Shown here: in pieces, positions 871 through 41,436 of the stretch
How positions within the stretch are numbered: the first letter of the stretch is position 1
Layout: every line of letters starts with the position of its first letter
Assembly (NCBI GenBank): GCA_035315885.1
Contig: DATFXM010000030.1
Location: forward strand, 38,619 to 102,618
DNA: 64,000 bases
Direction of reading: 5' to 3'
From: Blastocatellia bacterium
GTDB lineage: Bacteria > Acidobacteriota > Blastocatellia > UBA7656
The notes under the pieces: model-generated
The model's database searches: none
What the model was told of the DNA's origin: nothing
The model's input: the letters and a program-made list of their open reading frames with translations, nothing else
Translations under genes and position numbers: made by a program

Positions 871-901
871 TGAGTGATCCTTATCGTCTTCACTCCGTCA
901 C

Positions 902-9651: not shown

Positions 9652-9774
9652 TCGGAGCGCTCCTTTCCGGCTTGCTTCCGATTAATCGGACATCGACGAA
9701 CAGGTCGCGTCCTGCGGCCTTCGAACGAAGCTGAGGGCTCGCCGATGCTTCCCCTGGTCACACCACGTGCAAAC

Positions 9775-9807
9775 CTACTGCAAGGCTACTGCAACGCTAC
9801 TGCCACG
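9775..9807. repeat. Three tandem 11-nt direct repeats (CTACTGCAAGG / CTACTGCAACG / CTACTGCCACG) in the cox promoter region
   Basis: Read directly from the sequence. Lies ~125-155 nt upstream of the ctaC start codon on the opposite strand. Confidence 0.35.
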
Positions 9808-9827
9808 TTGACCGTGTGCTGATTGCT

Positions 9828-13810: not shown

Positions 13811-15225
13811 TGACTGTTCCTCGCGGTTTTGGTGTCGCTATGCTTGCCGGATGCGTTGATCTCGACGATCACCGACATTCCCGATCTCAGTCGCTTTGCC
13901 GATTCCTGGTCGTGGTCAATGAGAATCTTGACTGGTATGCGCTGCACGATCTTGGTGAAGTTGCCGGACGCGTTGTCCGGAGGGAGCAGGGCAAATTGCG
14001 ACCCGCTGGCAGGGGAGATCTGTTCGACATGGCCGTTCAGCCTGAGGCCGGGAAATGTATCAACGGTGATCACCGCCGAATCGCCCTTGGTTATGTTGGT
14101 GAGTTGGGTCTCCTTATAGTTAGCCTGAACCCATACATCGCTCTCCACGAGCGAGATCACCTGTGTGCCCGGGCTGACGAGTTGCCCCACGCGGACTTTG
14201 CGTTCTCCTACGACACCGTCTGTCGGAGCGAGAATTCGCGTGTATTCCAGGTTCGTGTTGGCTACCTTGACCGCCTCTTCCTTCGCCCTCAAGTCAGCCT
14301 TGAGTTGTAGTTCCTGCGCGTCGAGCACTCCTCGCTGTCGTTGCTGAGCCTGAAGTTCCGACTCGCGACTGGCCAGTGAGGCGCGCGCCTGCTGCGCCTG
14401 CGCCTTTCTGAGCGCAAGCAGCGCCTTGCTCTTTGACAGGTCGGCTAGTCGGCTTTCCAACGTCGCGGCGTATCGCTGTTCGTCGGCGGTGACCTGTTCG
14501 AATTTCTGCTTAGTCGCAGAGGCAGAGTCCAACAACGCTTCTTGTCGTTTCTTTTCCAACTGCGTTCGCACGACGTCGGCCCTGGTGCCGTCCACGCTGG
14601 CCTCAGCATTCGATATCTCGGCTTTCGCGGCCTCGACGCTGGCGTCTGTCTGAGCGATGTCGGCTTTGGCAGCCTCAACACCGGCTTCAGCCTGTGCGAT
14701 TTTTGACTCCTGAAGCGCCTTTTGTTTTGCGTTGTTCACCAGGGTGGCATTGGCCGCTTGCACTGCAGCTTCTGACTGCTCGACCTGCGCACGGTAATCC
14801 TCGTCCTTGATCTGTACGAGCAGGTCGCCGGCCTTCACGGTTTGATAATCTTCGACCGCAACTTGCGTCACCGTACCGGAGACTCTCGTGCTCAGAGGGG
14901 TGATGTCAGCTCGCAGGTAGGCGTCATCCGTTTTCTGGCTACCTGTCCTGCCAACCCATGAATTCCAGCTTGAAGTGATGAGAATAAGGAGCGCCACCGC
15001 GATCAATATCACCAGGACTGGAGTGAACCTGCGCAAAGTGCCACGCGGCTTCTTGACCTGTTCGACGTGCGAATCGGAACTCGCCGCGGCCGCTTTCTCA
15101 ACCGGTTGACCAGGGGTAGTAGCTGGTTTGGATTGATCCGGGTGCTGATCGGAGATCGCTCCCGATGGCTTGGCGTCTTGTGTCGTGTTTGGCGTGGGCA
15201 TTCGGTTCACTCCTTCTTGTGTCAC
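13807..15225 (-). CDS. emrA: HlyD/EmrA-family membrane fusion protein with a long coiled coil
   Basis: N-terminal TM (VLVILIAVALLILI), extended Ala/Gln/Glu-rich coiled coil, and a C-terminal beta-barrel/lipoyl-like domain. A 4-nt overlap with emrB indicates an operon. Confidence 0.8.
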   Translation of the reverse strand: MTQEGVNRMPTPNTTQDAKPSGAISDQHPDQSKPATTPGQPVEKAAAASSDSHVEQVKKPRGTLRRFTPVLVILIAVALLILITSSWNSWVGRTGSQKTDDAYLRADITPLSTRVSGTVTQVAVEDYQTVKAGDLLVQIKDEDYRAQVEQSEAAVQAANATLVNNAKQKALQESKIAQAEAGVEAAKADIAQTDASVEAAKAEISNAEASVDGTRADVVRTQLEKKRQEALLDSASATKQKFEQVTADEQRYAATLESRLADLSKSKALLALRKAQAQQARASLASRESELQAQQRQRGVLDAQELQLKADLRAKEEAVKVANTNLEYTRILAPTDGVVGERKVRVGQLVSPGTQVISLVESDVWVQANYKETQLTNITKGDSAVITVDTFPGLRLNGHVEQISPASGSQFALLPPDNASGNFTKIVQRIPVKILIDHDQESAKRLRSGMSVIVEINASGKHSDTKTARNSQ

Positions 15226-16565
15226 TTTTCTTCGCCGATCGACTTTTCAAATTCGGCTTTTGCAGTCCAGTAACCGAGAAGCGCGTCTTGGTATTTGTGA
15301 TTGGCTTCGGCAAGCGAGGCCTGTGACTGCAGGACATCGGACAACAGGGCTGCGGTCACCTTGTACTTGTTGGCGTTGATGCGCAGTACTTCACGAGCAG
15401 TTTCCTGTCCGAGTTGCGCAACGACCAGGGCCTGGCGGGTCTGTTGGAATTTGCGGAACTTATCGCCCACATCGATCAGGACCAGGCTCTCGGCTTCGTG
15501 TAAGCCAGTCTTGGCCTGCTCGATGAGTTTCGATTTTTCCGCCATTTGATCTTTCTTTCTTCCCCAATCGAAGATCTCCCATTTGACGAGCACACCGATG
15601 TTCGCAAAGTTCTGCGGGACGCCGCTGTCGAAATTTCGCAGTGTCACATATCTGAATCCGAGGGTAACATCGGGAATGTATTCGGACTTTATGATCCGGC
15701 GATCTACTTCCGCTTCCTTTATCCTCAGTCGCGCCTCTCTCACTTCGGGACGCTGATCCAGCGCGCGCGCGCGGGCCGAGGCGAGTTCAAGGTTATAGTC
15801 CGTCTGGGTGGGGACGGCGCTTACACTGAAATTCGTTTCCACGTCGCGGCCAAGAAGGTTGTTGAGCTGTTCTTTTTCGGTCGCGAGTTGGTTCGTAAGG
15901 TTGAGGGCATCATACTCGGCCTTCGCCAGGCGTGTTTCCACCTCGAGGCGATCGGATTTCAAGACAACCTGCTGTGCAACGTAGTCTCCGGTCACACGAT
16001 CCAGCTCGCGGTAAAGCCTTATGGCTTCAAGCACGCTTTCGAGTGCGCTCTGAGATTGGAGGATCGAGTAGTAGGTTCGCTTGACGCGATCAACTATGGA
16101 TTGTCTGACGTGGCGAAGTTTTTCATTGGTTACGTCGCGTGCCAGCTTGCCGTGCTTAATGGTCAGTCCGATGCGGTACTGCTGCGACAAGGGCTGAGCT
16201 ATCAGCGAGGTGAAGACGGTTGTCGGTCGCCGCGGAACAGTGAGGGGAGCAAACGAGTCGACGCCGGGGAGAAGGTCGGTTGTGACAGATTTCAGGTTGA
16301 TCTCATGCTGAACCATTTGGATTGAGGTGAGCGAGAACAAATTCATTGACGGCAATCGCATCGTGCGAATTGCTGCTAGATTGTCTTCGGCCTTGCCGAC
16401 TTCGAGTTCGGCGATCTTCACCAAATGGCTGTCGCTGAGGGCCAGCGAGATTGCCTGGTCTAGCGTAAGCACTTCGCCGGGAGCCGATCTGTCCCTTTGG
16501 CCGAAGGCACTAATTGGGGTCAGTAGCAATATGAACACTGCAAAGTTGGTCTTTGTTCGTCGCAT
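15222..16565 (-). CDS. TolC-family outer membrane efflux protein
   Basis: Signal peptide, then two repeats of the OEP/TolC helical-barrel pattern. Overlaps emrA by 4 nt. Confidence 0.75.
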   Translation of the reverse strand: MRRTKTNFAVFILLLTPISAFGQRDRSAPGEVLTLDQAISLALSDSHLVKIAELEVGKAEDNLAAIRTMRLPSMNLFSLTSIQMVQHEINLKSVTTDLLPGVDSFAPLTVPRRPTTVFTSLIAQPLSQQYRIGLTIKHGKLARDVTNEKLRHVRQSIVDRVKRTYYSILQSQSALESVLEAIRLYRELDRVTGDYVAQQVVLKSDRLEVETRLAKAEYDALNLTNQLATEKEQLNNLLGRDVETNFSVSAVPTQTDYNLELASARARALDQRPEVREARLRIKEAEVDRRIIKSEYIPDVTLGFRYVTLRNFDSGVPQNFANIGVLVKWEIFDWGRKKDQMAEKSKLIEQAKTGLHEAESLVLIDVGDKFRKFQQTRQALVVAQLGQETAREVLRINANKYKVTAALLSDVLQSQASLAEANHKYQDALLGYWTAKAEFEKSIGEEK

Positions 16566-16568
16566 GAC

Positions 16569-17663
16569 CTATACCTCTGGTGTTGGACTAAGAGTCGGTC
16601 GAACAATGCCTAACTTTCGCATCCTGAATGTCAGCGTGCTGCGATTGATTCCGAGTCTTTTCGCCGCTCCCTCTGGACCTCCAATCACCCAACTTGTTTC
16701 TTTCAGCACGGTCAGGATGTGGGCCCTCTCCACTTCCTCAAGAGTTCTTGAAGAAGACGAGGACACCCTGATCGAGCGCTGCACTTCAAAGACGGCGGGA
16801 CGCAGCGTTCCGTCAACCGACATAACCACCGCTCGTTCGATCACGTTCTGAAGCTCCCGAACGTTCCCGGGCCAGTCATAGCTCAGTAGCGCCCTTAATA
16901 CTTCGGGGGGAAAATCGTCGATCCGCCTGTTTAGTCTCTCGGAGTATTTCCTGGCGAAGTATCTGGCGAGTAAGATGACGTCTTCACCGCGTTCACGCAG
17001 GGCTGGAGCGAAAAGTGGGATGATGTCCAGCCGGTAATAGAGGTCGCTGCGGAACTTGCCACTTTGTACCAACTGGCCGAGGTCGCGGTTGGTCGCAGCA
17101 ACGACTCGGACATTCGGTGTGATGGTTCGGCTGCTGCCGAGTCGCTCAAACCCTTGATCCTGCAACACACGCAAAAGCTTCGGCTGGAGTTCCAGCGGGA
17201 GCTCGCCAACCTCGTCCAAAAAGAGAGTGCCATTGTGTGCAAGTTCAAGGCGGCCGACGCGCTGATTGACTGCGCCGGTGAATGCCCCACGTTCGTGGCC
17301 GAACAGCTCGCTTTCGAACAGGCTAGGCGGGATGGCGGCGCAATTGATTTTGATGAAGTTGTTGTGTCGCCTGGAGCTGAGATTGTGAATGGCGTCGGCG
17401 ATGAGCTCTTTGCCGGTGCCGGTCTCTCCATTGATCAGCACTGTCGAGTCTGTTGGCGCGACGAGCTCTGCCTGGTTGAGCATGTTTAGAAGCGCAGGGC
17501 TGTTGCCAATAATGTCGTTGAATTGCTGGACCGATCGCACATCCTTGGGCACGTCCGTCTTACTCTTGGCGTCAGAGCCTTGGCCTGCACTTGCGTCGCG
17601 TAAGGAGGGAACGACCCAACTTTGTGGAAGCGAGCCCGTTCGGTTGACTAAGACTGCGCTCAT
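16569..17663 (-). CDS. Sigma-54-dependent transcriptional activator (PspF-like bEBP) lacking an N-terminal sensory/receiver domain
   Basis: Walker A GETGTGKE, GAFTGA loop (ERGAFTGAVNQR), and C-terminal Fis-type HTH (AAKRLGINRSTLTFRMRKLGI). Only ~55 aa precede the AAA+ core. Confidence 0.85.
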   Translation of the reverse strand: MSAVLVNRTGSLPQSWVVPSLRDASAGQGSDAKSKTDVPKDVRSVQQFNDIIGNSPALLNMLNQAELVAPTDSTVLINGETGTGKELIADAIHNLSSRRHNNFIKINCAAIPPSLFESELFGHERGAFTGAVNQRVGRLELAHNGTLFLDEVGELPLELQPKLLRVLQDQGFERLGSSRTITPNVRVVAATNRDLGQLVQSGKFRSDLYYRLDIIPLFAPALRERGEDVILLARYFARKYSERLNRRIDDFPPEVLRALLSYDWPGNVRELQNVIERAVVMSVDGTLRPAVFEVQRSIRVSSSSSRTLEEVERAHILTVLKETSWVIGGPEGAAKRLGINRSTLTFRMRKLGIVRPTLSPTPEV

Positions 17664-17933
17664 AAGGTGCTATCTCCTTTGCCTCATAAAGAACGTTTTC
17701 GTAATGCTTGTTCTGCTTTCCAGAAACCTCGCATCGCTGTCGACTTCGTGTCTGAGGTGGTGAAGCGGTCGGAGCAAGACCTCGTCGAGTGCTTCGAGTA
17801 CGGGGTCCAAGTTCGCTTTGCTTGCTGCGTATTCTCGGAGGATTTCCATCATTTGGTCGCTGCAGCTCGAAGGCCTCCCTGCCGAGTTTGAAAACGCGGG
17901 AAGGGAATTGAGCCGATTCGAAGTCCTCTTCGA

Positions 17934-19115
17934 CTATGCTGCGATGCTGTTTCCCGGGGCTGTCCGGGAGTAAGCCGATTGCAGTGCCGCGGCTGCAAGG
18001 CTTGGTTCGCTGTCGTCACGGAAGCACGCCAGTTTCTTGCCGCTGTGATCGAGGTCTAAAACGACTATGTCTCCCAGGCGTAGTTGCCTCGATGCGGCAA
18101 GGTTGGCCAACGGGTGCACCACAAACCGCTCGATGGCGCGCTTCAAGTGGCGAGCGCCGTACCTGTAGTCGGTTCCTTCTCTGAGAAGAAATTCTTTTGC
18201 TTCTATAGTGGCGGTAACCGTGAACCGCTCGCTCGCGCCTTCGTCGATCCTTTGCTGCACCCCCGCGAGCTCCAGGTCGACGATGTTGCGCAATTGCTCG
18301 GGTCCGAGGCTCCTGAAGACCACCACTTTGTCAATTCGGTTCATGAATTCCGGTGAGAACTTCCGCCTCGCCGCCTCTGCTGCGGTGCGGTAAATCTTCT
18401 GGTCCAATTCTTCCGGAGCCAACTGGTCGCCGCCCGAGGGCGCAAAACCGATTGCGCCATCGACTAACTGGTTCATCTCGCGAGCTCCCAGGTTCGAGGT
18501 CATGAAGATCATGGTCTGCGAGAAGTCCACCTGCCGGTTGTCGCCGAGGGTGAGCGTGGCTTTGTCGAGGATTCCCAACAGGAGCTGCCAAAGCGCGTCG
18601 CTCGCCTTCTCGATCTCATCGAACAGTACCAGGCTGAACGGATTCGTCTCGGTGTGATACTTGTTGAGTCTTTCTTGCGTCAGCAAGGGCTGCGTTTCGC
18701 GATGACCGAGGTAGCCCGGAGGTGAGCCGATGAGCTTGGCGATCTCGTGCGAGTGCTGGAACTCGGCGCAATCAATCTTTATGACGGCGTTGCGGGAACC
18801 GAAGAGCGCTTCTGCCGCTGCCTCGATTACGTGCGTCTTACCCGTTCCGGTCGGACCGAGAAAGAGCATCGTCCCGATGGGCTTGTCCGGACTGGTCATC
18901 CCTGCCTGGAATACCTGGTACAGCGAAGCGATCTTGCGCACGGCCCGCTCTTGTCCGACAACGCGAGCGCGCAGATCTGCTTCAAGTTGAGAGGCATGCA
19001 TGCTCTTGCACTCGGTATCAAGTGCGACCAATCTCTTTGTGTTGACCTTCTTGAACTCTCCGGTCTCGGTGATCGGTTGCGTCATTGGATTTGAGGTTTG
19101 ATAAGACATCGTCAT
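17934..19115 (-). CDS. Stand-alone ClpA/ClpB D2-like AAA+ ATPase (AAA_2 core plus ClpB_D2-small domain)
   Basis: Walker A GPTGTGKT, sensor/arginine region, and D2-small C-terminus (...YGARHLKRAIERFVVHPLANL). No N-domain, D1 or middle domain. Carries a 55-aa unique N-terminal extension. Confidence 0.7.
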   Translation of the reverse strand: MTMSYQTSNPMTQPITETGEFKKVNTKRLVALDTECKSMHASQLEADLRARVVGQERAVRKIASLYQVFQAGMTSPDKPIGTMLFLGPTGTGKTHVIEAAAEALFGSRNAVIKIDCAEFQHSHEIAKLIGSPPGYLGHRETQPLLTQERLNKYHTETNPFSLVLFDEIEKASDALWQLLLGILDKATLTLGDNRQVDFSQTMIFMTSNLGAREMNQLVDGAIGFAPSGGDQLAPEELDQKIYRTAAEAARRKFSPEFMNRIDKVVVFRSLGPEQLRNIVDLELAGVQQRIDEGASERFTVTATIEAKEFLLREGTDYRYGARHLKRAIERFVVHPLANLAASRQLRLGDIVVLDLDHSGKKLACFRDDSEPSLAAAALQSAYSRTAPGNSIAA

Positions 19116-19261
19116 GCCCCTTTCTTTTCATTCGCCCGGCAACTCTCGTCGTCGTTCAACGTGTTCAATCTCAGGTTCTCCGCTTAGCGCGAACGATCGC
19201 GTCGCGTTTCATCAAGCGTTGAATCTTCTTGTCAATCTCACATCGCTCGGTGAATAGAGGA

Positions 19262-19278
19262 GGCAACGTGGGGGCCAG
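19262..19278 (-). promoter_or_regulatory. Candidate sigma-54 (-24/-12) promoter for the AAA+ ATPase gene. Minus-strand sequence is TGGCCC-N5-TTGCC.
   Basis: The minus strand reads CTGGCCCCCACGTTGCC, with GG and GC separated by the canonical 10 nt. It lies ~150 nt upstream of the ATG at 19115. It is one of three conserved cassette copies. Confidence 0.4.
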
Positions 19279-19316
19279 TGCTAACTTGCTGAAAACATTC
19301 GGTGTGGGATCGAGGG

Positions 19317-19355
19317 TTCGCGAATTTCTCGCGAAAGGTCGCAAGAACATCGCCG
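19317..19355 (-). promoter_or_regulatory. Conserved dyad element (TTCGCGA-ATTTC-TCGCGAA followed by CGCAAGAAC), a candidate bEBP upstream activating sequence. Cassette copy 1.
   Basis: Perfect inverted repeat read from the sequence. Its centre lies ~60 nt upstream of the -24 element. Copies at 23571-23611 and 26626-26665 show a compensatory change. Confidence 0.4.
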
Positions 19356-19498
19356 TTAGTCCTGTCGCCTGAATTTAAGATTCAGTGAGCGACCACGCTC
19401 GAACTCGCGCGAGTCGATGCGTCGATACTATGCAGCTAGATTTGTGGTTCCAGTGTCGAGGTGGGATACCCAGACGCGAGCCGCATGCCCGTGCAGAG

Positions 19499-19684
19499 CT
19501 ACCGGCTCGCCCCGAGGTGTCGAAGGATTGTCTCAGCGTGTATGTCTGGTGCCTTGTCGCGTATTTTTTCGATCTCCTTCTTGCTGAGTCCGCCCGCTGC
19601 TTTTATGGATTTCACAGTGCGGATGTATTCGTCCTTTGGTCTCTCGAAGTAAGCTAATAACAATCTGTCAACCTTACTGCTCAT
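19499..19684 (-). CDS. Small hypothetical protein (61 aa), Lys/Glu-rich and helical
   Basis: ORF MSSKVDRLLLAYFERPKDEYIRTVKSIKAAGGLSKKEIEKIRDKAPDIHAETILRHLGASR lies between TonB and the sigma-54 cassette. Its coding-like composition differs from flanking DNA. No identifiable family. Confidence 0.3.
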   Translation of the reverse strand: MSSKVDRLLLAYFERPKDEYIRTVKSIKAAGGLSKKEIEKIRDKAPDIHAETILRHLGASR

Positions 19685-19792
19685 ATATGAACCTTTATGA
19701 ACCTTTTCTCATTCCACCGTTTCACAGTATACGACGCGCTGGGGAGGCGGTTTAGCTCTCCAGCACGTCCTACGTATTCTCTACCTTTGTTG

Positions 19793-20857
19793 TTACAGCA
19801 GAGTGAACTTGAACTCGAGCGAGACGCGCACACTTACCGTATGCCCATCTTTCTGCGCCGGAACGAACCGCAATTCTCGTGCAGCCTCTATAGCCTTCTC
19901 ATCAAGGCCATATCCGAGCCCGCGGGTGACTCTGATGTCCGATATCGTGCCATTGGCGTTCAGTACCGCAGAAAGTTTTACCTGTCCCTCGATCTGGGCG
20001 CGCCGCGCCTCCTCTGTGTACCCAGGAACGGGACGCGATAGCATCTGCGGACGCGTCGTGACGTTACTAATGGTGAAGACGCCGTTGTAGTTTACGTCCG
20101 CATTCGATCCACTGCCGGGTCCTCCAGAAGCCGTGCCGCCACCACTACCGGTAAGGCCGCGGGCTGCACCATCCGATGCTGAAGCCCGGGAGGCGGTCTC
20201 ACTTGTCGGTGAGTTTGAGGTTGGTGTAATTGGTTCCGTAGTTACTGTTTGGTCGGGCGGGCGCGGTGTCGGCTTGGCTTCTGGGAATTCAGCCTTAGGC
20301 TGATCTGTAGATTTGATTGGAGGCGCCAACTGCCCTCTGCCTGTCGTGCCGCCCGCTTCTTTGAGCTGCGGGACGGCTTTTTTGACAGGCACAGGAGGGG
20401 GCGCCAGGAAGGTAATCGCAAGATGCTGCACAGGAGCGGCGTCCGGCGTTACGCGGTGAAAGATACGATACGATACGTAGATCCCGGAAAGTGCTAATGT
20501 GTAGAAAGCAACGGCAACGGTTATGCCGGCACGCAGTTTTTTTCGTTGCGCGTCGAGGCTGGTGCCGCCTTTGGTAGCCGCACTTATGAAAGCAATGGGA
20601 TCTTGGCGCAGGGCCCGCACAGCCTCTGCCAGCTCGCGGGCAAGTCGGACCGCAAAAGGATCGGCGACGTTCGACTTTAGAAACTTTAAATCAGCATAAG
20701 CTCGCTCATTGGCCTCTGCATTCGTTTCAAGGGTCGTTTCAAAGGTCTTGGACGAGGGCGCCGACGGCCGATCTTTGTCCTGCGGGAAAAGGGTGTTAAG
20801 AAAGCCCCCTGCCTTCGGCCGTTTCGGTATTACGTTGATGTTATTCAGGGTTTCCAT
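19793..20857 (-). CDS. tonB: TonB-family energy transducer (N-terminal TM, Pro-rich spacer, TonB C-terminal domain)
   Basis: TM helix (ITVAVAFYTLALSGIYVSY), a Pro/Thr-rich linker (PPPVPVKKAVPQLKEAGGTTGRGQLAPPIKSTDQPKAEFPEAKPTPRPP), and the C-terminal TonB_C signature (VPGYTEEARRAQIEGQVKLSAVLNANGTISDIRVTRGLGYGLDEKAIEAARELRFVPA). Confidence 0.75.
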   Translation of the reverse strand: METLNNINVIPKRPKAGGFLNTLFPQDKDRPSAPSSKTFETTLETNAEANERAYADLKFLKSNVADPFAVRLARELAEAVRALRQDPIAFISAATKGGTSLDAQRKKLRAGITVAVAFYTLALSGIYVSYRIFHRVTPDAAPVQHLAITFLAPPPVPVKKAVPQLKEAGGTTGRGQLAPPIKSTDQPKAEFPEAKPTPRPPDQTVTTEPITPTSNSPTSETASRASASDGAARGLTGSGGGTASGGPGSGSNADVNYNGVFTISNVTTRPQMLSRPVPGYTEEARRAQIEGQVKLSAVLNANGTISDIRVTRGLGYGLDEKAIEAARELRFVPAQKDGHTVSVRVSLEFKFTLL

Positions 20858-20895
20858 GAATCGTAACCTGACCTTTCGAACTCGCGCCGCCTTTC

Positions 20896-21867
20896 TTAGT
20901 TTGACCTCGAGTAGTAGCCGGTCCGAGTAAGAGCCTTCAGGCCGGGCTGCGTCATTTTTATAGTGATCTTATGAAAGCTGCGGCTTGAGGAAGCAGTCTG
21001 AAACTGGTAGCCGATTGAATACTGACTCCTCAATTCATCTTGCAGCTTGTTGAAGAATCCAGCTAGCTGGGTCTCACCGCCATCAAGGTGAAACTGGCGT
21101 CCCCCGGTTGCGTCTGTAATGCGAGTGAGCACCGGCTTGCCCTGATGGTCGCGTCCGTTCAGCGAGTTATCACCCGGCAGCCGAATCGCATAGACGGTGA
21201 CATTGTTCCTGACCGCGATCTCTATCGCCTGCTCGATGGAGGCTCGGCTGGTGGTATCGTCGCCGTCGGTTATCAGAACGATGACGCGGCGGGCGTCTTC
21301 TGTGCCGGCCAACTTGTCTCGTGAAGTTTTGTAGATGGCGTCAAATACTGATGTCCCGCCGGCGGCGGTCAGCTTATTGACCGCGCTTGCCAGGATGTCG
21401 GCGTTGTCGGTGAAGTCCTGGACAAGATATACGCCCGAATCGAACGCCACGAGACACGCGGTATCTTTCCCTGGCCTGAGCACTGAATTGATGAAATTGT
21501 GTACGACGGCTTGAGCGCGACTCATGACTTTTTGGACGCTGCGGCTTCTGTCGACGACAAGCGCCACGCGAAGCGGCTGGTCTGATTCCTGGCTGAAGTA
21601 CGTGATGGGCTGTTCTTTACCGTCGTCGAGCACGGTGAAGTCACCCTTGGTGAGCCCGGAAACGAAATGTCCCTGCTCATCGCGAACCGACACACGGGTG
21701 TTGACCAGCGCGGTGTCAAATGTGATCGTCTCGTCATCCTTCTGCTCGACGCTGGCATTCTGTCGAGCTGGTCTGGGTTGTCGGGTGGCCTGGGCAACAG
21801 CCAGTTGCGTTGCAATCAGGGTTACACCGCAGATCAGGATTGCGCGTTTCATATAGCACCTGTCCAT
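20896..21867 (-). CDS. Secreted von Willebrand factor type A (VWA) domain protein
   Basis: Signal peptide, then a VWA fold with a MIDAS-like DxSxS motif (VVDRSRSV) and later TDGDDT. Confidence 0.75.
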   Translation of the reverse strand: MDRCYMKRAILICGVTLIATQLAVAQATRQPRPARQNASVEQKDDETITFDTALVNTRVSVRDEQGHFVSGLTKGDFTVLDDGKEQPITYFSQESDQPLRVALVVDRSRSVQKVMSRAQAVVHNFINSVLRPGKDTACLVAFDSGVYLVQDFTDNADILASAVNKLTAAGGTSVFDAIYKTSRDKLAGTEDARRVIVLITDGDDTTSRASIEQAIEIAVRNNVTVYAIRLPGDNSLNGRDHQGKPVLTRITDATGGRQFHLDGGETQLAGFFNKLQDELRSQYSIGYQFQTASSSRSFHKITIKMTQPGLKALTRTGYYSRSN

Positions 21868-21868
21868 T

Positions 21869-22735
21869 TCATCTCACCGAAGCCGCGACGCGGCGAGTCA
21901 CCTGGTCGACGAAGCCATCGGCTACGCCGCTCAAAGCGTCGCGCGGTGACAGAGGGCCGAGCAGGCTTGACCCACCCGACTTGCCGGAGACGATCTGTCT
22001 GCCGATTTCTTCGCCGGTGTCCTTGTCGTAGTAGCGTAGCCGAACCGTCAGGATGGACTTACCAAGGTCGAGGGGTAGCGCTTGTTTGATGCGATTCCCC
22101 TTAGCGTAATCCAGCACTTCGATCACTGCTACCAGCGTCAGGTCTGCATCCGGTTCGGCCTTTCGATCCGGAGTGAGTCGTAGCTTGTCTCGAGATTCCA
22201 TGTCTGAAAAGCTGCCGATTGAAGAATCAAGAGTATCGTCCGGTGGGCTGACCGTGCGTTCAGAGTTCGCTTGGACTCGTTTCTCCGCCTGGCCTGCAGC
22301 CCCGGGCTTGTAACTATCAACAACCGTCACCGAATCAAAGATCTTTCGCTCTTCGAACTGAGACTTAAATTTGTCGAGCTGGTGATCTGCGACCTGTGAT
22401 GTTAAGGCGTTTCCAACAAAGCTAACGGGCCCTACAATCTCGAGATGATGATAGTCGGCCAGGTTGCCTTTGAAGGGAATGATTGTCGTGACTCGGAAGT
22501 CCCCTCCCATCACGACTGTCTTAATACTGACGATGCCGTTCTTCCCTTTGTAGTTCACCAGTTTCTCACGATTCTCTGTGGTAAGGCGGAAGCCCTCGGC
22601 GGGCGGCTGGGCAACTTCTGGTTTGGGCTGGTCCGATATGGATTGCGCCAGGCCGGTCACCGAGAAGCCGAGTATGAACAGAATCGCGAAGGGCAAACTG
22701 TTCCGGGTCGTGTAGCGTCTTGCATTACTTGCCAT
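21869..22735 (-). CDS. Hypothetical secreted protein, paralog B of a tandem pair (start reassigned to ATG 22735)
   Basis: GGAGG lies 9 nt upstream of ATG 22735. Signal peptide (MASNARRYTTRNSLPFAILFILGFSVTGLAQ). C-terminal region aligns with its neighbour 22725..23393 (LTVRLRYYDKDTGEEIGRQIV vs LTLRITLRDKQTGRTLGETNI). Confidence 0.55.
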   Translation of the reverse strand: MASNARRYTTRNSLPFAILFILGFSVTGLAQSISDQPKPEVAQPPAEGFRLTTENREKLVNYKGKNGIVSIKTVVMGGDFRVTTIIPFKGNLADYHHLEIVGPVSFVGNALTSQVADHQLDKFKSQFEERKIFDSVTVVDSYKPGAAGQAEKRVQANSERTVSPPDDTLDSSIGSFSDMESRDKLRLTPDRKAEPDADLTLVAVIEVLDYAKGNRIKQALPLDLGKSILTVRLRYYDKDTGEEIGRQIVSGKSGGSSLLGPLSPRDALSGVADGFVDQVTRRVAASVR

Positions 22736-23393
22736 ATGCCAGCGCCTCCTTGGGTCCGTTGTCGTGACTCGTCGTGCTGCCAACGAAGTGAGCTACCTCG
22801 TCCGCCGCTTTGACCACCATTCTTGGGACATTGCTGGTGACGCGCGTGTTCTCGACGGTGATATTCGTCTCCCCGAGCGTCCGCCCCGTCTGCTTGTCCC
22901 TGAGCGTGATGCGAAGAGTTAGCACTGCGTGGTTATTACCCTGCTCGATATATCGAAGCGCCGGTATTCCCGGGGTGTAGTCGTCTATGTATCCCTCTAC
23001 GATGAGCTCTTGCGGGGCTCCAGCAGTGGCGACTTCAGAGGCGGACTGATTAACGGCGCTTTCTGAAGGATTCGGCGCTTCTACGTGCGTGACGCGTTCA
23101 AAGCGATTGAGCGCTCGGGTTCGGTTTAGTATCTCAGTGTTCAATTGGGTGACCACCGTCTCGGGGATCTGATCGAGCATGAGATTCTCTAATGGACGGA
23201 CCTCGACGCGGCGATAAGCGCGCAGATCTTCAGTAACCGGGGATATCTTGTAGGAGCGCGTCCTCAAGCCGTGGACCTCCCGAAAGATGCGCGAAGGTAC
23301 GGAGTTGGCGACGCCGCGGACGGAACAGCCGTAGCTTACCGCTGCTACGCTTACGCCTAATGCACATATGATTGCTTTGCAAGTTAGTCTCAT
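22725..23393 (-). CDS. Hypothetical lipoprotein, paralog A of a tandem pair (start at ATG 23393)
   Basis: GGAG lies 5 nt upstream of ATG 23393. Lipoprotein signal (MRLTCKAIICALGVSVAAVSYGC). C-terminal similarity to 21869..22735. No known motif. Confidence 0.55.
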   Translation of the reverse strand: MRLTCKAIICALGVSVAAVSYGCSVRGVANSVPSRIFREVHGLRTRSYKISPVTEDLRAYRRVEVRPLENLMLDQIPETVVTQLNTEILNRTRALNRFERVTHVEAPNPSESAVNQSASEVATAGAPQELIVEGYIDDYTPGIPALRYIEQGNNHAVLTLRITLRDKQTGRTLGETNITVENTRVTSNVPRMVVKAADEVAHFVGSTTSHDNGPKEALAYGK

Positions 23394-23519
23394 TGGTTCT
23401 CCAGCGCACATCTAATGGTTCTGGTTATTCTCCGGTTGGAGCGAGGAGGCCCACGTACGAGGTCGTCAATAGGTTAGTACGGAGTGTCGCACTGTCCTCT
23501 TCGCTCCGTGGATAACAAA

Positions 23520-23537
23520 GGCAAAGTGGAGGCCAAT
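23520..23537 (-). promoter_or_regulatory. Candidate sigma-54 promoter (minus strand TGGCCT-N5-TTGCC) for the lipoprotein/VWA/TonB transcription unit. Cassette copy 2.
   Basis: The minus strand reads TTGGCCTCCACTTTGCC, GG-N10-GC. It lies ~125 nt upstream of ATG 23393. Confidence 0.4.
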
Positions 23538-23570
23538 CTTAAGTTGCTGATATTAATCAGCCGGTGATCT

Positions 23571-23611
23571 TCGTTCGTGAATTTCTTGCGAAGAGCCGCA
23601 AGAACCTTGCC
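23571..23611 (-). promoter_or_regulatory. Conserved dyad/UAS element, copy 2 (TTCGTGA-ATTTC-TTGCGAA ... GCAAGAAC)
   Basis: Aligns with copies at 19317-19355 and 26626-26665. A second overlapping dyad TTCTTGCG-N6-CGCAAGAA is perfect here. Confidence 0.4.
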
Positions 23612-23716
23612 TCTGGAATTGCGATAAGACGGTGAGTTACTCTCCGGAGTTCAAGCAAAACGCTGCTTCGCTGTGAATTTATTAGGTGGAATGCGCTGTA
23701 GGCAAACAGGTTTGTG

Positions 23717-25408
23717 CTACGAGAGTCCAGCTCGACGCAGGATTTCCTGGAACCGTGGGTCATCGCGCAGCGGGTCGAGAAGCGGTTCAATTCTGAGTAG
23801 AGGCCCGAAGACGCCATAAGACTTGTCCAATTCGGCGAGCGCTTTTTCCTTTTCGCCGAGTGCAGTTAGAAACACGACGGCGTCGTATCGAGAAAGGTTG
23901 CCGAGCTGATCTTTCGCGGTCATCGCTCGCAGACATCCGTGCCAGCCATCCTTCGCAAGGCTATCTCGTATCAATGCTGCACCTGAACGATCGCCCATTA
24001 GCTCTCGGTAGGTGGCGTAGCTATGCGCTGCGTCGACGTAATTCTGATTCGCCTGATAGTACTTCGTGAAACGCTGATAGGTGCCTGCGTATTCAGTATT
24101 CAGTTCGAGCGTCTTCTTAAGTTGAGCGATCGCGTCGCCGTACCGCCGCGCGTAAAAGAGACTTTCGGCATAGTCCAAATTGATGACCAGTGACAGCGGA
24201 TCGATCTCCAGTGCTTGCTGGAATTCAGCAAGCGACTCCTCGTTTCGCCCGAGGTAGAAGAGCAGAATGCCGTACCATTGGTGAGCAGTCGCGTAATTCG
24301 GGTTTAGTTCGATGGCTCGTTTGTATTCGCGCTCCGCTTCCGCGAAGTCACATTCGTGTGAGAAAACGTGTCCGAGAGTTGCGTGCGCCTCGGCTAAGTC
24401 GGGGTCCAGCGACAAGGCCTTCATCGCGGCCTCTCGCGCCGCCGGCATAGCTTCGCGCACCGGCCCGTTTCGATAGAATGGAAGCACCGCATACGTATCC
24501 GCGCGACCTGCGTAGGCCAATGCGTAGCTCGGGTCAAGCTCGATTGCTCGATTGAAATACTCGAGAGCTTTTTCCAGATCCTTCAATGTTCGCTTGTTCC
24601 AATAGAAGCGCCCTTTCAAATAGAGCTGGTAGGCTTCGGGATCTGTCGTGTACTTCTTCGACAACTTCTGCTCCTCGCCGCCCACGAGCTTCATTCGCAA
24701 TTTGGTCAGGACGTCGTGAGCAATCTCGCTCTGCAAAGCCACGAGATCGGACTGCTTTCGAGTGTATTGCTCGCTCCAGATCACGTTTTCTGTTCGTGCA
24801 TCAGCCAGCTCCAGGCTGAGCGTCAACAAATCGCCGCGCACAGCTATGCGGCCGTTTAGGACCGCCTGGACGTTCAAGTCCCTGCCCACCGTACCCGGCG
24901 CCACATCCTGGCCTTTGTAGCGGAAGACCGACGATCGAGCCTTAACATTTGGAATCGGAAGCTGAGACAGGTTGGAGATCAGCATTTCCGTCATTCCGTC
25001 TGAAAGATAGTCGAGCTGCTGGTCAGCATTGACGTTGAGGAAGGGCAAAACGGCGAGCGAAGAGATGCCGGCCCTACCTTTCCCTGACAATAAGTAGTGA
25101 GCTAATCCAGTCAACGCAAGTGCAACGATCGCGGCAAGGACAGCTTTGCCGATCCTCTGCCTTAGCCGTCCGGCAACGAATGTTAAGATTCTGGCTTTAA
25201 ATAGCTGGATCCGGCCCCATCGGCCGGTTTGCGCTCTTTCAGAGTTCTCAAGTACGGTGGTAGACGCCGTTGACCCTGGGCGTGGAAGAACGGCAGTTCT
25301 CATATCAGAGGCCGACTCGTCGACCACCACTAGCCGGGCGCCATCGATGCGACAAAAAGCGAGCGCGTCGTCTGTCTCAACGTGATCACATTGAGGACAG
25401 CTTTTCAT
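23717..25408 (-). CDS. Zinc-ribbon / TM / periplasmic TolB_N-like domain / TPR-repeat protein
   Basis: N-terminal CPQC...C zinc ribbon, a single TM (AVLAAIVALALTGLAHYLL), a periplasmic domain (LAVLPFLNVNADQQLDYLSDGMTEMLISNLSQ...) resembling TolB N-terminal/CsgG-like modules, then about 8 TPR repeats. Confidence 0.7.
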   Translation of the reverse strand: MKSCPQCDHVETDDALAFCRIDGARLVVVDESASDMRTAVLPRPGSTASTTVLENSERAQTGRWGRIQLFKARILTFVAGRLRQRIGKAVLAAIVALALTGLAHYLLSGKGRAGISSLAVLPFLNVNADQQLDYLSDGMTEMLISNLSQLPIPNVKARSSVFRYKGQDVAPGTVGRDLNVQAVLNGRIAVRGDLLTLSLELADARTENVIWSEQYTRKQSDLVALQSEIAHDVLTKLRMKLVGGEEQKLSKKYTTDPEAYQLYLKGRFYWNKRTLKDLEKALEYFNRAIELDPSYALAYAGRADTYAVLPFYRNGPVREAMPAAREAAMKALSLDPDLAEAHATLGHVFSHECDFAEAEREYKRAIELNPNYATAHQWYGILLFYLGRNEESLAEFQQALEIDPLSLVINLDYAESLFYARRYGDAIAQLKKTLELNTEYAGTYQRFTKYYQANQNYVDAAHSYATYRELMGDRSGAALIRDSLAKDGWHGCLRAMTAKDQLGNLSRYDAVVFLTALGEKEKALAELDKSYGVFGPLLRIEPLLDPLRDDPRFQEILRRAGLS

Positions 25409-25505
25409 AACAACTCACGATCGCTTTCAACGTGTGTCGACATTCAACGCATCGGCTTGTTCAAAGCTTCTGTCCAAAGTAAGGGGGCGGAGCCACCGGC
25501 TGACG

Positions 25506-26381
25506 TCAAGAACTAAGACCCGAAGCAACCCGCGGCGCCAGGGCGCCTAAGAGAATGTCATAGAACCGCCCTTTCAAATAACGCCGGTAGACGTCCGCAT
25601 TTGTCGTGTACTCGCTCAACAATCTCTGATCATCGGTGTTCGGCAGTTTCACGCGTAGTTTGGCGGCGACGTCGCCGGCAATTTCGCTCTGCAGGGAAAC
25701 AAGCTCACCTAGTTTGCGTCTGTATTGCTCGCTCCAGATCACGTTTTCCGTTAGCGCATCGGCCAGCTCCACACTGAGCGTCAAAATGTCGCCGCGCTGA
25801 CTGATGTGTCCGTTTAAGATCGTCTGTACGTTTAACTCTGCAGCAACCGTACGTGGAGGAACATCCATGCCTTTGTAGCGAGACACGGAGGAAATTGACT
25901 TTACGCTCAAATTCGGAAGCTGGGATAAACTTGTGATCAGCGTTTGGGTCATCCCGTCTGAGAGGTAGTTAAGCTGTTGGTCGTTATTGATACTAGTGAA
26001 CGGCAAAACAGCCAGCGATTTATTGACCGAATTGCTCTTGAGAGAGAATGAGGAGTAAACCACTAGCAAGGCAATCAACGTGGCGATGGCTATCACGCGC
26101 ACTCCGATCTTGTCCCTCTTCTTTTCCATAAAACTGCCTTCACTTGTTTTGCTGGACAACTTTGCTGAGCTCGTCGATGCGGCAGGTCGATCTAAGACCC
26201 GGTTCGATTCGACAGGCGGATCTAAGACTGTGGTCGATACGATGGCAGCGTGAGGTTGAAGGGCAACCGTTTCATCATCGATAAGCGACTGGCTATCGAA
26301 AACGATTCGACCACCATCGGTGCGACAAAAAGCCAAGGAATCATCTGACGGGACACGTTTGCATTTAAGACAGCGTTTCAT
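25506..26381 (-). CDS. Truncated paralog of 23717..25408 (zinc ribbon + TM + TolB_N-like domain only). Possible pseudogene or decoy.
   Basis: Same architecture up to YLKGRFY, then an unrelated 17-aa tail. Nucleotides 25680-25800 are ~85% identical to 24720-24840. Confidence 0.5.
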   Translation of the reverse strand: MKRCLKCKRVPSDDSLAFCRTDGGRIVFDSQSLIDDETVALQPHAAIVSTTVLDPPVESNRVLDRPAASTSSAKLSSKTSEGSFMEKKRDKIGVRVIAIATLIALLVVYSSFSLKSNSVNKSLAVLPFTSINNDQQLNYLSDGMTQTLITSLSQLPNLSVKSISSVSRYKGMDVPPRTVAAELNVQTILNGHISQRGDILTLSVELADALTENVIWSEQYRRKLGELVSLQSEIAGDVAAKLRVKLPNTDDQRLLSEYTTNADVYRRYLKGRFYDILLGALAPRVASGLSS

Positions 26382-26574
26382 ATCAACTCGTTTCGCTAGA
26401 GCCTCGGGTGACGGAGATTGGCCCTGAAGGGAGGATCAGTTTGCGACCGCCGCAAGTCCCTCGTACTGACAAGAGAGTCATCAACGCTATCGCGAACAGA
26501 CATCCCGGAAAGAAAGTTTTCGATTGGCTGATCATCGCCTCACCTCCTTTTGAGCACGCAGCCGCGAATTGTGA

Positions 26575-26590
26575 GGCAACGCGAGGACCA
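26575..26590 (-). promoter_or_regulatory. Candidate sigma-54 promoter (minus strand TGGTCC-N5-TTGCC). Cassette copy 3.
   Basis: The minus strand reads ATGGTCCTCGCGTTGCC, GG-N10-GC. It lies ~190 nt upstream of ATG 26381. Confidence 0.35.
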
Positions 26591-26625
26591 TCCTAAGTTT
26601 TTGATTCTTAGTTGGGACGCTCTCG

Positions 26626-26665
26626 TGTTCGCAAATTTCTTGCGAATGTCCGCGAGAACGTTGCC
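26626..26665 (-). promoter_or_regulatory. Conserved dyad/UAS element, copy 3 (TTCGCAA-ATTTC-TTGCGAA ... CGCGAGAAC)
   Basis: Perfect inverted repeat. The central G-to-A change relative to copy 1 is matched by a C-to-T change in the partner arm, so the dyad is preserved. Confidence 0.4.
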
Positions 26666-26738
26666 TTTGTATCCAGTTGATCGGTTGCGTCTGAGGGAGG
26701 GGAGACGATCTGCGGGGCAAGGTAAATTACATCAACGT

Positions 26739-27887
26739 CTACGCTGCGCTGAATGATGCGCGAGCGGGCCAGTCGACGACTTGATGCTTGAAGCGTCGCT
26801 TGTCGATTTTCAACATTTTGATTTTTGATTCTAATGTAGAGGAAGGGATGCCAAGCAGCGAGGCTGCACCGAACGGCCCGGATACTCGCCCCTTGCTTTC
26901 GACAAGGGCTGCTTCGATGGCGTCTTTCTGTTGAGTCGCGAACGAGCGTTGCGAACGCATCTCCGCTCCCGCTGCCGCGGCAGCAGCGGCACGCGCCCTC
27001 GACGGTCGTGCGGAGAGCCATTGCTCATCGATGTACAACGACTCCGAGTCGGAGACGATTACCGCTCGTTCCACGAGATTCTGCAGCTCTCGCACGTTGC
27101 CAGGCCAGCCGTACGACTGCAGCAGGCTCAAAGCCTTCTTGCTGATCATGTTGATTCTTTTCCCGGCCCTCGCGGCGATGCGGTGAGTGAAGTACTCGAC
27201 AAGAAGCGGAATGTCCTCCAAACGTTCGCGCAGCGGAGGCATTTCCAGCGGAAACACGTTCAGGCGGTAATACAGATCAGATCGGAACGTCTTCTCCTCG
27301 ATGGCAGCTTCCAGGTCCCGGTTGGTCGCGGCAATCACTCGAACGTTCACGCGTATTGGGCGATTACCGCCAACGCGCTCGAACTCACGCTCTTGAAGGA
27401 CTCGTAACAGCGTCACCTGGATCTCCGCGGGAAGCTCGCCGATCTCATCAAGGAAGATCGTCCCGCCGTCCGCCAATTCGAAGCGGCCTTGTCGGCGCTG
27501 CATCGCACCGGTAAACGCGCCCTTCTCGTGGCCGAAGAGCTCCGAGGCGATGAGCGACGGAGGGATCGCAGCGCAGTTGACGCTTATAAAAGGTCCATTA
27601 CATCGTCGTGATCGCTTGTGGATCGCTCGTGCGACGATCTCCTTGCCGGTCCCGGTCTCACCAGTGATCAACACGGTCGAATCTGTTGGAGCGACTTGGG
27701 ACACTTCCGATAGTACCGATCGTAAGGACGCCGAGATGCCGACGATTCCTTCGAACATTGAAGAACTGTCCGGCTGGTCACCGAAGACGATGTTGTCTTG
27801 AAGTTCGATGTCCCGGTCTATGACATCGTAAGTTGTGCGTTCAATCGGTTCCTGAACCCGGCGATGATCAGCAAAATAATTGCTCAT
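26739..27887 (-). CDS. Sigma-54-dependent transcriptional activator (PspF-like, no sensory domain), paralog of 16569..17663
   Basis: Walker A GETGTGKE, GAFTGA, and a C-terminal HTH (AASLLGIPSSTLESKIKMLKI). Only ~45 aa precede the AAA+ core. Confidence 0.85.
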   Translation of the reverse strand: MSNYFADHRRVQEPIERTTYDVIDRDIELQDNIVFGDQPDSSSMFEGIVGISASLRSVLSEVSQVAPTDSTVLITGETGTGKEIVARAIHKRSRRCNGPFISVNCAAIPPSLIASELFGHEKGAFTGAMQRRQGRFELADGGTIFLDEIGELPAEIQVTLLRVLQEREFERVGGNRPIRVNVRVIAATNRDLEAAIEEKTFRSDLYYRLNVFPLEMPPLRERLEDIPLLVEYFTHRIAARAGKRINMISKKALSLLQSYGWPGNVRELQNLVERAVIVSDSESLYIDEQWLSARPSRARAAAAAAAGAEMRSQRSFATQQKDAIEAALVESKGRVSGPFGAASLLGIPSSTLESKIKMLKIDKRRFKHQVVDWPARASFSAA

Positions 27888-28091: not shown

Positions 28092-28541
28092 TTAGAGGGA
28101 TGAGAGATTCAGGGGTGGGTTCTTGTCCTTACGTGGAGGGACGACTGTAACGCGCCTTCCAAACAACTTCGCATCTACTGAGTATGCGCCGGGCCCAAGC
28201 AGGGCGAGCGACACCGCTACGAATATTGTGTAGAGGTGGATGAGATTGCCCGAGTTGAAGGCGATCAACAGATTTGCTGCGGCAGCCACGCCCACAATCG
28301 AGGCCAGAAAGGGCGTCAAGAAGCCGACAAATAAGGAAAGGGAGATCAGACAGATTACGAGCGCTAGCACGAGCAGCACTGGGTTTGAAGAGACGCCGTG
28401 CCGGTTTGCCAGGTTCATCAGGAAGGCCGCCGCAACCAGGATACGTAGAAGCAACAGGGCGACCCCTGGTCCCCCGTGAGGAAACATCGAATACAATCGC
28501 TGCACGAGTTGAGCGTAGCTACTTTCTTTTGGGTGGAACAC
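28092..28541 (-). CDS. DoxX-family membrane protein
   Basis: 149 aa, 4 TM, with DoxX-like features (LLLRILVAAAFL...GPGAYSVD). Confidence 0.6.
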   Translation of the reverse strand: MFHPKESSYAQLVQRLYSMFPHGGPGVALLLLRILVAAAFLMNLANRHGVSSNPVLLVLALVICLISLSLFVGFLTPFLASIVGVAAAANLLIAFNSGNLIHLYTIFVAVSLALLGPGAYSVDAKLFGRRVTVVPPRKDKNPPLNLSSL

Positions 28542-35272: not shown

Positions 35273-35293
35273 ATCAAGTAGTGACATGAGAAT

Positions 35294-40971: not shown

Positions 40972-41436
40972 ATGGAACAAAAACCAACGAACGAACAAGC
41001 ACAACTACATCTGCAAGTCTATGATTTGCGCCGCGAGGAACGCCTCCGCCAGGCGCGCGATTGGTTCCAACGGAACTACGTCGTCGAGACAATCGACGAC
41101 TCTAACCGTATTGCGCCGCCCGGAACCGAAACCGGAAACTTCGTTGGAATGGTGATCGGCTACTGGGAACAAGCGTGCGCGCTGCTCAACTACGGCCTGC
41201 TCCACGAGGACCTCTTTTTCTCGACCAGCGGCGAGTTCTTTGGTGTCTGGGAAGCGCTAAAGCCGGTGGTCCCTCAGTTTCGCGAGCAGTTTGCGAATCC
41301 GAACCTGCTCTCTAATTTAGAACGAGCTGCCCAGCGCTTCGAAGCCTGGTCAGCGCAACGGTCTCCTGGTCATATTGCTGCAATGCGGCAAATCCTGCAC
41401 CAGCGGCGGTCTCAACTTAAAGCGGCAGGCGCCTGA
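40972..41436 (+). CDS. Hypothetical protein (154 aa)
   Basis: Internal ATG 40972 has GGGAGAA 4 nt upstream. No recognisable motif. Confidence 0.4.
   Translation: MEQKPTNEQAQLHLQVYDLRREERLRQARDWFQRNYVVETIDDSNRIAPPGTETGNFVGMVIGYWEQACALLNYGLLHEDLFFSTSGEFFGVWEALKPVVPQFREQFANPNLLSNLERAAQRFEAWSAQRSPGHIAAMRQILHQRRSQLKAAGA

Follow-up and report, generated by a model that had tools for sequence, protein, structure and literature searches.

A candidate sigma-54 envelope-response regulon in Blastocatellia marked by a repeated enhancer-promoter cassette

We examined a 64-kb window of contig DATFXM010000030.1 (assembly GCA_035315885.1) of Blastocatellia bacterium, a soil acidobacterium, in which a block of minus-strand genes between 12.1 and 28.5 kb carries three copies of a sigma-54-type enhancer-promoter, here called the cassette. 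Open reading frame (ORF) coordinates were combined with Pfam and NCBIfam profile searches, and all window proteins were compared by tblastn with 19 fetched loci (labelled L001 and so on). In the direction of transcription the block runs from the gene of EBP-B (26739..27887), a sigma-54 activator of the enhancer-binding protein (EBP) type without a sensory domain, through cassette 3 (26575..26669) to a truncated (25506..26381) and a full-length (23717..25408) gene for a membrane protein with a zinc-ribbon-like N-terminus, a transmembrane (TM) segment and TPR repeats, referred to here as ZnR-TPR. Cassette 2 (23520..23615) is followed by lipoA (22725..23411), lipoB (21869..22735), the gene of a secreted VWA protein (20896..21867), that of a TonB_C-domain protein (19793..20857) and orf61 (19499..19684). 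Cassette 1 (19262..19358) lies before the gene of a Clp-type ATPase (17934..19115), beyond which are the gene of a second sensor-less activator, EBP-A (16569..17663), and a tripartite efflux pump (12158..16565) whose OEP (15222-16565), HlyD-type adaptor (13807-15225) and major facilitator superfamily (MFS; 12158-13810) components were identified with Pfam. All of these lie on the minus strand. The ORFs, their order and the three cassettes of a first-pass annotation of this DNA match these coordinates exactly, and its domain calls were supported by the profile searches. We propose, with about even confidence, that the block is a co-regulated sigma-54 envelope-response regulon and not a single machine.

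The cassettes are built around a 19-mer, TTCGCRAGAAATTYRCGAA, found in three mismatch-free copies (19317-19335, 23574-23592 and 26628-26646) where 0.17 would be expected by chance in the window even allowing three mismatches. All three copies are intergenic and on the coding strand. Each cassette of approximately 95 nt contains a dyad upstream activating sequence (UAS), TTCTTGCG-N5-TTCGCNAGAAATTCNCGAAC, a site like that of integration host factor (IHF), ATCANCAANTTAA, about 20 nt after the 19-mer, and a -24/-12 promoter of the form TGGYC-N7-TTGCC. The consensus for IHF is WATCAANNNNTTR, which ATCANCAANTTAA fits. The promoters of the window copies (TGGCCCCCACGTTGCC, TGGCCTCCACTTTGCC and TGGTCCTCGCGTTGCC in cassettes 1, 2 and 3, respectively) lie 37-39 nt after the 19-mer with exact GG-N10-GC sigma-54 spacing, and across 13 copies from seven Blastocatellia genomes the UAS-to-promoter distance was always 37-40 nt, with the GG-N10-GC element and the dyad UAS conserved. 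Judged by these motifs, the cassette is a complete predicted sigma-54 enhancer-promoter.

Besides the window genome, six genomes carried the cassette at orthologous positions (L007, L013, L017, L018, L019 and L023/L024). The 13 copies were upstream of and co-oriented with lipoA or an Omp85-lipoA operon, ZnR-TPR genes, the ATPase and the efflux pump. For example, the cassette precedes ZnR-TPR genes in L018 and L019, stands directly before an orthologous pump (67-77% identity) in L007 and L017, and has an Omp85 gene as the first gene after it in L007, L013, L018 and L023. The idea of a single sigma-54 logic for the block, already put forward from the first reading, is thus borne out both by the three copies of one enhancer-promoter and by its recurrence in the six other genomes. 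A reading of the cassette as a mobile repeat was rejected because every copy stands before an orthologous gene in the same orientation and the functional motifs are kept from genome to genome. Two UAS near-matches at 41279 and 645 were also set aside, one being intragenic and both lacking a promoter, and two metagenome scans for the cassette returned zero matches in one case and three chance matches without module genes in the other. Scans of the window for sigma-70 promoters and terminators gave chance-level results. No terminator-like site was found in the 270-nt gap between the ATPase and EBP-A genes (17664-17933), and only 3 nt separate the EBP-A stop codon from the OEP start, so that the pump is plausibly read from cassette 1, whose transcription probably continues through the ATPase gene to EBP-A and the pump.

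Two further features of the cassettes were recorded. In most copies the -12 element is followed some 15-30 nt later by a conserved GAGCGA(G/T)G(A/T)G, which may be a leader or 5'-untranslated element (window 19225-19245 and 23485-23505; cassettes of L017, L018, L019 and L023). At L013 2374-2522 two cassettes stand back to back on opposite strands, and the one on the minus strand points towards a Rossmann-like ORF and panB, not towards a module gene.

Both activators contain Sigma54_activat (253 bits in EBP-B), AAA_lid_14 and HTH_8, a Fis-type helix-turn-helix (HTH), with an intact GAFTGA motif. The earlier description of them as lacking any sensory domain was correct: only about 47-50 amino acids precede Sigma54_activat, with no N-terminal sensory or other domain. 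The PspF model scored 288-302 bits against them, below its cut-off of 443. Orthologues of EBP-B (64-79% identity) adjoin the cassette loci L007, L018 and L019 and share an identical HTH recognition helix (GIPSSTLESKIKMLKI) and a conserved C-terminal tail. EBP-A had no orthologue in the other cassette loci. It was 52-53% identical to the AAA and HTH part of activators at L008 that carry a GAF domain (GAF-EBPs), and its recognition helix is common with the GAF activators, not with EBP-B. No GAF remnant was found upstream of EBP-A, and a search of the window for the UAS of the GAF-EBP-type loci (TGTCAG repeats) as an EBP-A target gave nothing above chance; by its sequence EBP-A looks like a GAF-type activator from which the GAF domain has been lost. 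The first-pass annotation had counted both activators as part of the module. EBP-A is not conserved with it, and only EBP-B is a candidate for the conserved cassette partner. The tail of EBP-B after the HTH (window 26739-26800 and orthologues) reads KIDKRRFKxQVxDWxAxxxFSxA-COOH and could be a partner-binding site or a degron. A 149-amino-acid multi-pass membrane protein without a Pfam match is encoded 5' of EBP-B (28092..28541, minus strand) and is a possible accessory gene; a 64%-identical homologue lies directly upstream of the EBP-B orthologue in L019.

LipoB had 146 homologues among 5.8 billion proteins and 56 cluster representatives among 1.84 billion. In 185,579 species-representative genomes we found 10 LipoB loci, nine in Blastocatellia metagenome-assembled genomes (MAGs) and one labelled Clostridia, which is probably a binning error. 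The genes lipoA, lipoB, VWA and TonB_C were contiguous in every locus not cut by a contig end. Conservation of the gene order, the check named in the first pass, therefore holds for this four-gene core and fails for a fixed 12-gene module, as the ATPase gene is adjacent in 3 of about 12 loci and EBP-A is not conserved. A second type of locus (L008, L009/L014, L012, L015 and L016) keeps lipoAB-VWA-TonB_C with a sigma-54 promoter (cGGCACGCCTGTTGCC), has a different UAS (TGTCAG repeats) and no ZnR-TPR gene, and is often followed by a trypsin-like protease; a divergent GAF-domain activator was observed in L008, L009, L015 and L016. A cassette-type locus (L013) and a GAF-type locus (L016) occur in one MAG, and therefore paralogous modules can coexist. 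Distant LipoB relatives adjoin a LipoA-like gene and usually a VWA gene, as in L021 and in L022, which also has an AsmA/DUF748 protein, while L020 pairs the LipoB relative and LipoA-like gene with a PMT-type glycosyltransferase and a TPR protein. TonB_C and sigma-54 promoters are missing from these distant loci (L020-L022), and since they retain (VWA)-LipoA-LipoB we take this to be the ancient core.

LipoA is a lipoprotein with a lipobox (...SYGC|S) whose Cys is conserved in nine orthologues, and it is a paralogue of LipoB (hhalign probability 90%, E 1.4e-6, 138 columns). LipoB, which is 100% identical to NCBI protein VKM94_03260, is a predicted periplasmic protein with a signal peptide and, in the window genome, no lipobox Cys. 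The earlier description of paired lipoproteins thus stands for LipoA and not for LipoB, and by sequence only LipoA is a clear lipoprotein. The pair has a long disordered insert. A natural 490-amino-acid fusion (P0245) joins a LipoA-like half to a LipoB-like half, a Rosetta-stone case arguing that the two proteins cooperate physically. They are likely a hetero-oligomer. Neither had a Pfam or NCBIfam match even at E=5 or a meaningful PDB match in profile searches. A first AlphaFold model of LipoB, made with 25 close homologues, was left unused (predicted local distance difference test, pLDDT, 47.6). Among known structures the model used matched PelC of the PelBC exporter best, followed by CsgG, LptE and PqiC, and LipoB is accordingly modelled with a PelC/LptE/CsgG-type alpha/beta fold. 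The pair has no sequence-family membership in the PelC/LptE/CsgG/LpoB/PqiC/TolB-N group, and PelB, LptD, CsgE/F and the other Pel, Lpt and curli partners are absent from the loci.

With 222 bits over model positions 2-323 of 324 (cut-off 81.25), the VWA protein is a member of TIGR03436, the acidobacterial VWFA family, and it also matches VWA and VWA_2. Its metal ion-dependent adhesion site (MIDAS; DxSxS) is intact, with the sequence DRSRS. The 354-amino-acid TonB_C-domain protein of the inner membrane scored 63 bits with PF03544 and 55 bits, above the cut-off, with TIGR01352. As in TonB of the TonB-ExbB-ExbD system, it has a C-terminal TonB_C, a Pro-rich periplasmic linker and a single N-terminal TM anchor; it differs in its unusual, conserved cytoplasmic N-terminus of about 110 amino acids, in having no nearby ExbB/ExbD and no conserved receptor, and in being always encoded after the VWA gene. 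The linker and an amphipathic pre-TM helix are conserved across nine orthologues, and the TM segment ends ...SYRIFH, which is not the canonical S-x3-H. From these sequence features it is not, we would argue, a standard ExbBD-coupled TonB, and the missing ExbB/ExbD partners remarked on in the first pass were indeed found nowhere in the window. RpoN and PspA genes were likewise not found in the window. The small cytoplasmic helical protein of 61 amino acids encoded by orf61 had no family match in profile searches, and we regard orf61 as a real gene because it is conserved at 56-68% amino acid identity in five genomes (L001, L010, L013, L017 and L023). A 59-amino-acid ORF at 19171-19350 was disregarded, as it overlaps cassette 1 and has no conserved counterpart.

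The full-length ZnR-TPR protein (563 amino acids) has one TM segment, a periplasmic domain resembling FlgO and CadC, and repeats matching TPR families, and is our proposed periplasmic sensor. Its N-terminus, MKRCPQC-x12-FCRxDGxRL, is invariant among nine homologues. The truncated paralogue (291 amino acids) retains the CxxC...C N-terminus, the TM segment and the FlgO/CadC-like domain, and by alignment its TPR part is deleted. For the periplasmic domain the FlgO score was a sub-threshold 19 bits, with regional CadC/HilA matches; a PDB profile search with ZnR-TPR found generic TPR proteins only, and hhalign detected no relationship to LipoB. Orthologues of 60-71% identity were observed in L001, L007, L013, L018 (two copies), L019 (two copies) and L023, and the two full-length tandem copies of L018 occupy the position of the truncated and full-length pair in the window. 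ZnR-TPR was present at 6 of 6 assessable cassette-type loci versus 0 of 4 GAF-EBP-type loci, as raw counts not corrected for phylogeny. At the GAF-EBP-type locus L016, a Ser/Thr kinase-TM-FlgO/TolB_N-like protein (276-1640, minus strand) follows the ATPase gene and carries the same periplasmic domain as ZnR-TPR, which by sequence is consistent with a sensor module able to drive different cytoplasmic outputs. A small conserved single-TM ORF of about 80 amino acids (MRIFQA...), absent from the window, lies between the TonB_C and ZnR-TPR genes at L001 7733-7975 and L007 13228-13383.

The ATPase (393 amino acids) is a single-ring, class II Clp protein of the second nucleotide-binding domain (NBD2) type, matching AAA_2 (131 bits) and ClpB_D2-small (61 bits), with Walker A/B, a GYLG pore loop, sensor motifs and a conserved N-terminal peptide of about 40 amino acids. 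The first-pass annotation had called it a stand-alone ClpB-D2-like ATPase. Only the equivalent of ClpB residues 550-850 is present (TIGR03346, 251 bits versus a cut-off of 1232), and the protein is instead ClpC/ClpA-D2-like, with an IGF in the loop that leads from sensor-1 to the FxPEFxNR helix and aligns to the AGF P-loop of Staphylococcus aureus ClpC. A tripeptide of this kind (IGF, VGF or MGF) was found in 119 of 120 homologues. Tripeptides of the ΦGF type dock Clp ATPases on ClpP and separate the ClpA from the ClpB subfamily (PMC12521514, PMC9495089). Because of the conserved IGF loop we predict that the ATPase is a single-ring ClpP partner and not a ClpB-like disaggregase; ClpB/Hsp104 proteins have two NBDs and an M-domain and lack a ClpP loop. 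With the NBD2 of ClpC and ClpA it shares AAA_2 and D2-small, the GYxG pore loop and the ΦGF tripeptide in the ClpP-docking loop, and with ClpX and Skd3/CLPB the possession of one NBD only. Unlike ClpC, ClpA and ClpB it has no N-domain, NBD1 or M-domain, has its own N-terminal peptide and would be sigma-54-controlled, and unlike ClpX it has no zinc-binding domain.

In the window, L001 and L016 the ATPase gene adjoins the module, and in L008 some 10 kb separate the two. At L002-L006 (four other genomes) it occurs alone in unrelated contexts. A sigma-54-type promoter precedes it in L004 (TGGCACCGGGCTTGCA), L008 and L016 and probably in L002 and L006. Since it has these stand-alone contexts and its best 120 homologues are all at least 69% identical, the ATPase appears to represent a wide and highly conserved family of Blastocatellia, recruited repeatedly by the module and only loosely linked to it. 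One homologue of 547 amino acids (L003 24-1667, P0001) shows a partial internal AAA duplication (query 24-249 and 97-386), either real or an assembly artefact.

In the proposed regulon EBP-B would bind the dyad UAS, IHF would bend the short spacer, and EBP-B would remodel the sigma-54 holoenzyme via its GAFTGA loops. Lacking a regulatory domain, EBP-B would need control in trans, and the gate is probably the ZnR-TM-CadC-like-TPR protein, which would read a periplasmic cue and, being itself under the cassette, would close an autoregulatory loop. The first output would be outer-membrane-associated LipoA, LipoB and MIDAS-containing VWA protein together with the TonB_C protein spanning the periplasm from the inner membrane, and in some genomes an Omp85 barrel; the second would be the single-ring Clp unfoldase, predicted to dock on ClpP; and the third would be the MFS/HlyD/OEP efflux pump. 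Most likely the regulon serves to respond to toxic compounds or to damage of the envelope or outer membrane. The regulon so proposed is undescribed, lineage-restricted and made of known domain types.

Several observations weigh against this interpretation. We infer the gating of the activator by a partner from the co-occurrence of ZnR-TPR with a sensor-less activator only, and likewise infer UAS binding by EBP-B from adjacency and conservation alone. No EBP was found within the sequence covered at the cassette loci L013, L017 and L023. In the genome of L001 and L011 the module, ZnR-TPR, ATPase and orf61 are kept with a different repeat of 109 nt, present three times without GG-N10-GC, and with no nearby activator. 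The IHF-like site is unusually close to the -24 element. In the first-pass description of ZnR-TPR the TM segment and the TPR repeats held; its zinc ribbon consists of three Cys and a conserved Asp and is sub-threshold for the Pfam zinc-ribbon models, and by analogy the protein could be structural, like the TPR scaffolds in Pel export. The LipoB model reached a pLDDT of 64 after divergent relatives were added and is only moderately confident. A clpP gene was not found in the window, and all genomes examined were MAGs.

The 109-nt cassette just mentioned (palindrome GGTAATTGCCGATTACC) was observed at L001 3093-3201 and 9765-9873 and at L011 1295-1395, preceding the lipo operon, the ATPase gene, and a small ORF with a Reg_prop histidine kinase; its multi-copy logic is the same and its regulator different. 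In L007 a related element stands before the EBP gene.

An export or assembly apparatus is the explanation that best survives beside the envelope-response regulon, and we consider it unlikely. In this reading LipoA and LipoB would assemble into a ring like that of PelC or CsgG beneath an Omp85 barrel, with ZnR-TPR as a PelB-like scaffold and the TonB_C protein as the tether in the inner membrane. The VWA protein, or else a polymer, would be exported as cargo or adhesin, and sigma-54 would control surface adhesion or biofilm formation. The ranking of PelC and then CsgG, LptE and PqiC among the matches of the LipoB model agrees with this, as do the VWA gene that is always adjacent and the AsmA/DUF748 protein next to the distant LipoB relative in L022. 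The Omp85 gene that leads the operon in L007, L013, L018 and L023 would supply the barrel, but the window and L019 have no such gene. The TPR protein is not an obligatory structural part, since the GAF-EBP-type loci lack it and keep lipoAB-VWA-TonB_C. Moreover, the block contains no polysaccharide synthase or glycosyltransferase, and a stress response accounts better for the shared control of an unfoldase and an efflux pump. A related joint claim is that the block holds at once a new outer-membrane maintenance or export device that crosses the envelope (a heteromeric PelC-like LipoA/LipoB ring, the MIDAS-containing VWA protein and the TonB_C protein as tether, either alone or with an Omp85 barrel), a new class of sigma-54-controlled, ClpP-docking NBD2 unfoldase across Blastocatellia, and a new way of gating an activator via the cytoplasmic zinc ribbon of ZnR-TPR. 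We find it rather doubtful that all three are true together.

In its regulatory design the envelope-response regulon is comparable to the Psp system, with a sensor-less sigma-54 activator (PspF), a compact UAS-IHF-promoter arrangement, envelope outputs and presumed trans control by membrane partners. It falls outside Psp in that no block or window protein matched PspA_IM30, PspB or PspC. The effectors at the locus are PelC-fold (lipo)proteins, the VWA protein, the TonB_C protein, the Clp ATPase and the pump, three promoters share one enhancer, and the proposed gate is a ZnR-TM-TPR protein. A closer parallel to Psp feedback would have the ATPase (with ClpP) or the orf61 product act on EBP-B or on the cytoplasmic parts of the ZnR and TonB-like proteins, for example by degradation via the ...FSxA-COOH tail. 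The conserved tail of EBP-B orthologues beyond the HTH, the conserved 40-amino-acid peptide and IGF loop of the ATPase, the conserved cytoplasmic helix of the TonB-like protein, and the co-transcription of the cytoplasmic orf61 with genes for periplasmic proteins (next to the ATPase gene in the window and L001) would all suit such a loop. The ATPase family, however, is far wider than the module and is found alone, with its own sigma-54-type promoters and no lipoAB nearby, and most cassette loci (L007, L013, L019 and L023) have no ATPase gene within 10 kb, which leaves this feedback improbable in our view. It is more improbable still that the block is a TonB-dependent nutrient uptake locus, in which the TonB paralogue would energise an upstream receptor-like protein (28672-31800) with the other genes as accessories: the TonB_C domain and the CarboxypepD_reg/OMP_b-brl_4 receptor 0.8 kb upstream of EBP-B invite it, but no related locus encodes a homologue of the receptor, no cassette lies upstream of it, the window has no ExbB/ExbD, and the TonB-like protein has its 110-residue cytoplasmic N-terminus and lacks SxxxH spacing.

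The block was also compared with Bat/MoxR-VWA systems, which likewise bring VWA and TPR proteins together with an AAA+ ATPase at the envelope. The ATPase here is Clp-type where theirs is MoxR (AAA_3), DUF58 is absent, the VWA protein is secreted and not TM-anchored, and the BatA and BatC models scored 29 bits (cut-off 380) and 22 bits (cut-off 175), respectively. A reading as anti-phage defence was rejected, as PADLOC gave only partial AAA matches of the ATPase (PDC-M37B, DolB) and nothing for the other seven proteins. The view that this gene combination has no described counterpart stood up to these searches: LipoA and LipoB were without Pfam, NCBIfam or PDB sequence matches, literature searches on TIGR03436, DUF4410 and Acidobacteria/sigma-54/VWA returned nothing relevant, and none was found on this gene set.

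Few soil bacteria are as abundant as the Acidobacteriota, and to our knowledge almost nothing is known of how they sense and repair their envelope. The proposed regulon is clean and testable, with a single enhancer sequence, three output operons, and one candidate each for the activator and the membrane sensor. If ZnR-TPR does gate the activator, this would be a new input mechanism for sigma-54 signalling. The previously unannotated LipoA/LipoB pair is now tied, through the LipoB model, to the PelC/LptE fold group, and the compact Clp ATPase may be a new ClpP partner. The family is narrow and represented by MAGs only, which limits its reach and experimental tractability.

The remaining genes of the window encode respiratory complexes, Reg_prop histidine kinases and unrelated proteins, and Rfam and tRNA scans of the window were empty. 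Histidine kinases of the Reg_prop/Y_Y_Y/HisKA_3 type and LuxR-type response regulators recur near the module (window 32174-39030 and 45584-49892; L001, L008 and L023). In L023 a pair like that at window 45584-49892, a 410-amino-acid hypothetical protein and a kinase (66% and 62% identity), directly follows orf61. A sigma-54-like element, TGGCAGTAGCGTTGCA, was also observed at window 9760-9810 on the minus strand, within a triple repeat (GCAGTAG-NN-TTGCAGTAG...), and lies approximately 140 nt upstream of a cytochrome c oxidase operon (COX2 8587-9651, COX1 6893-8584, COX3 6277-6876).

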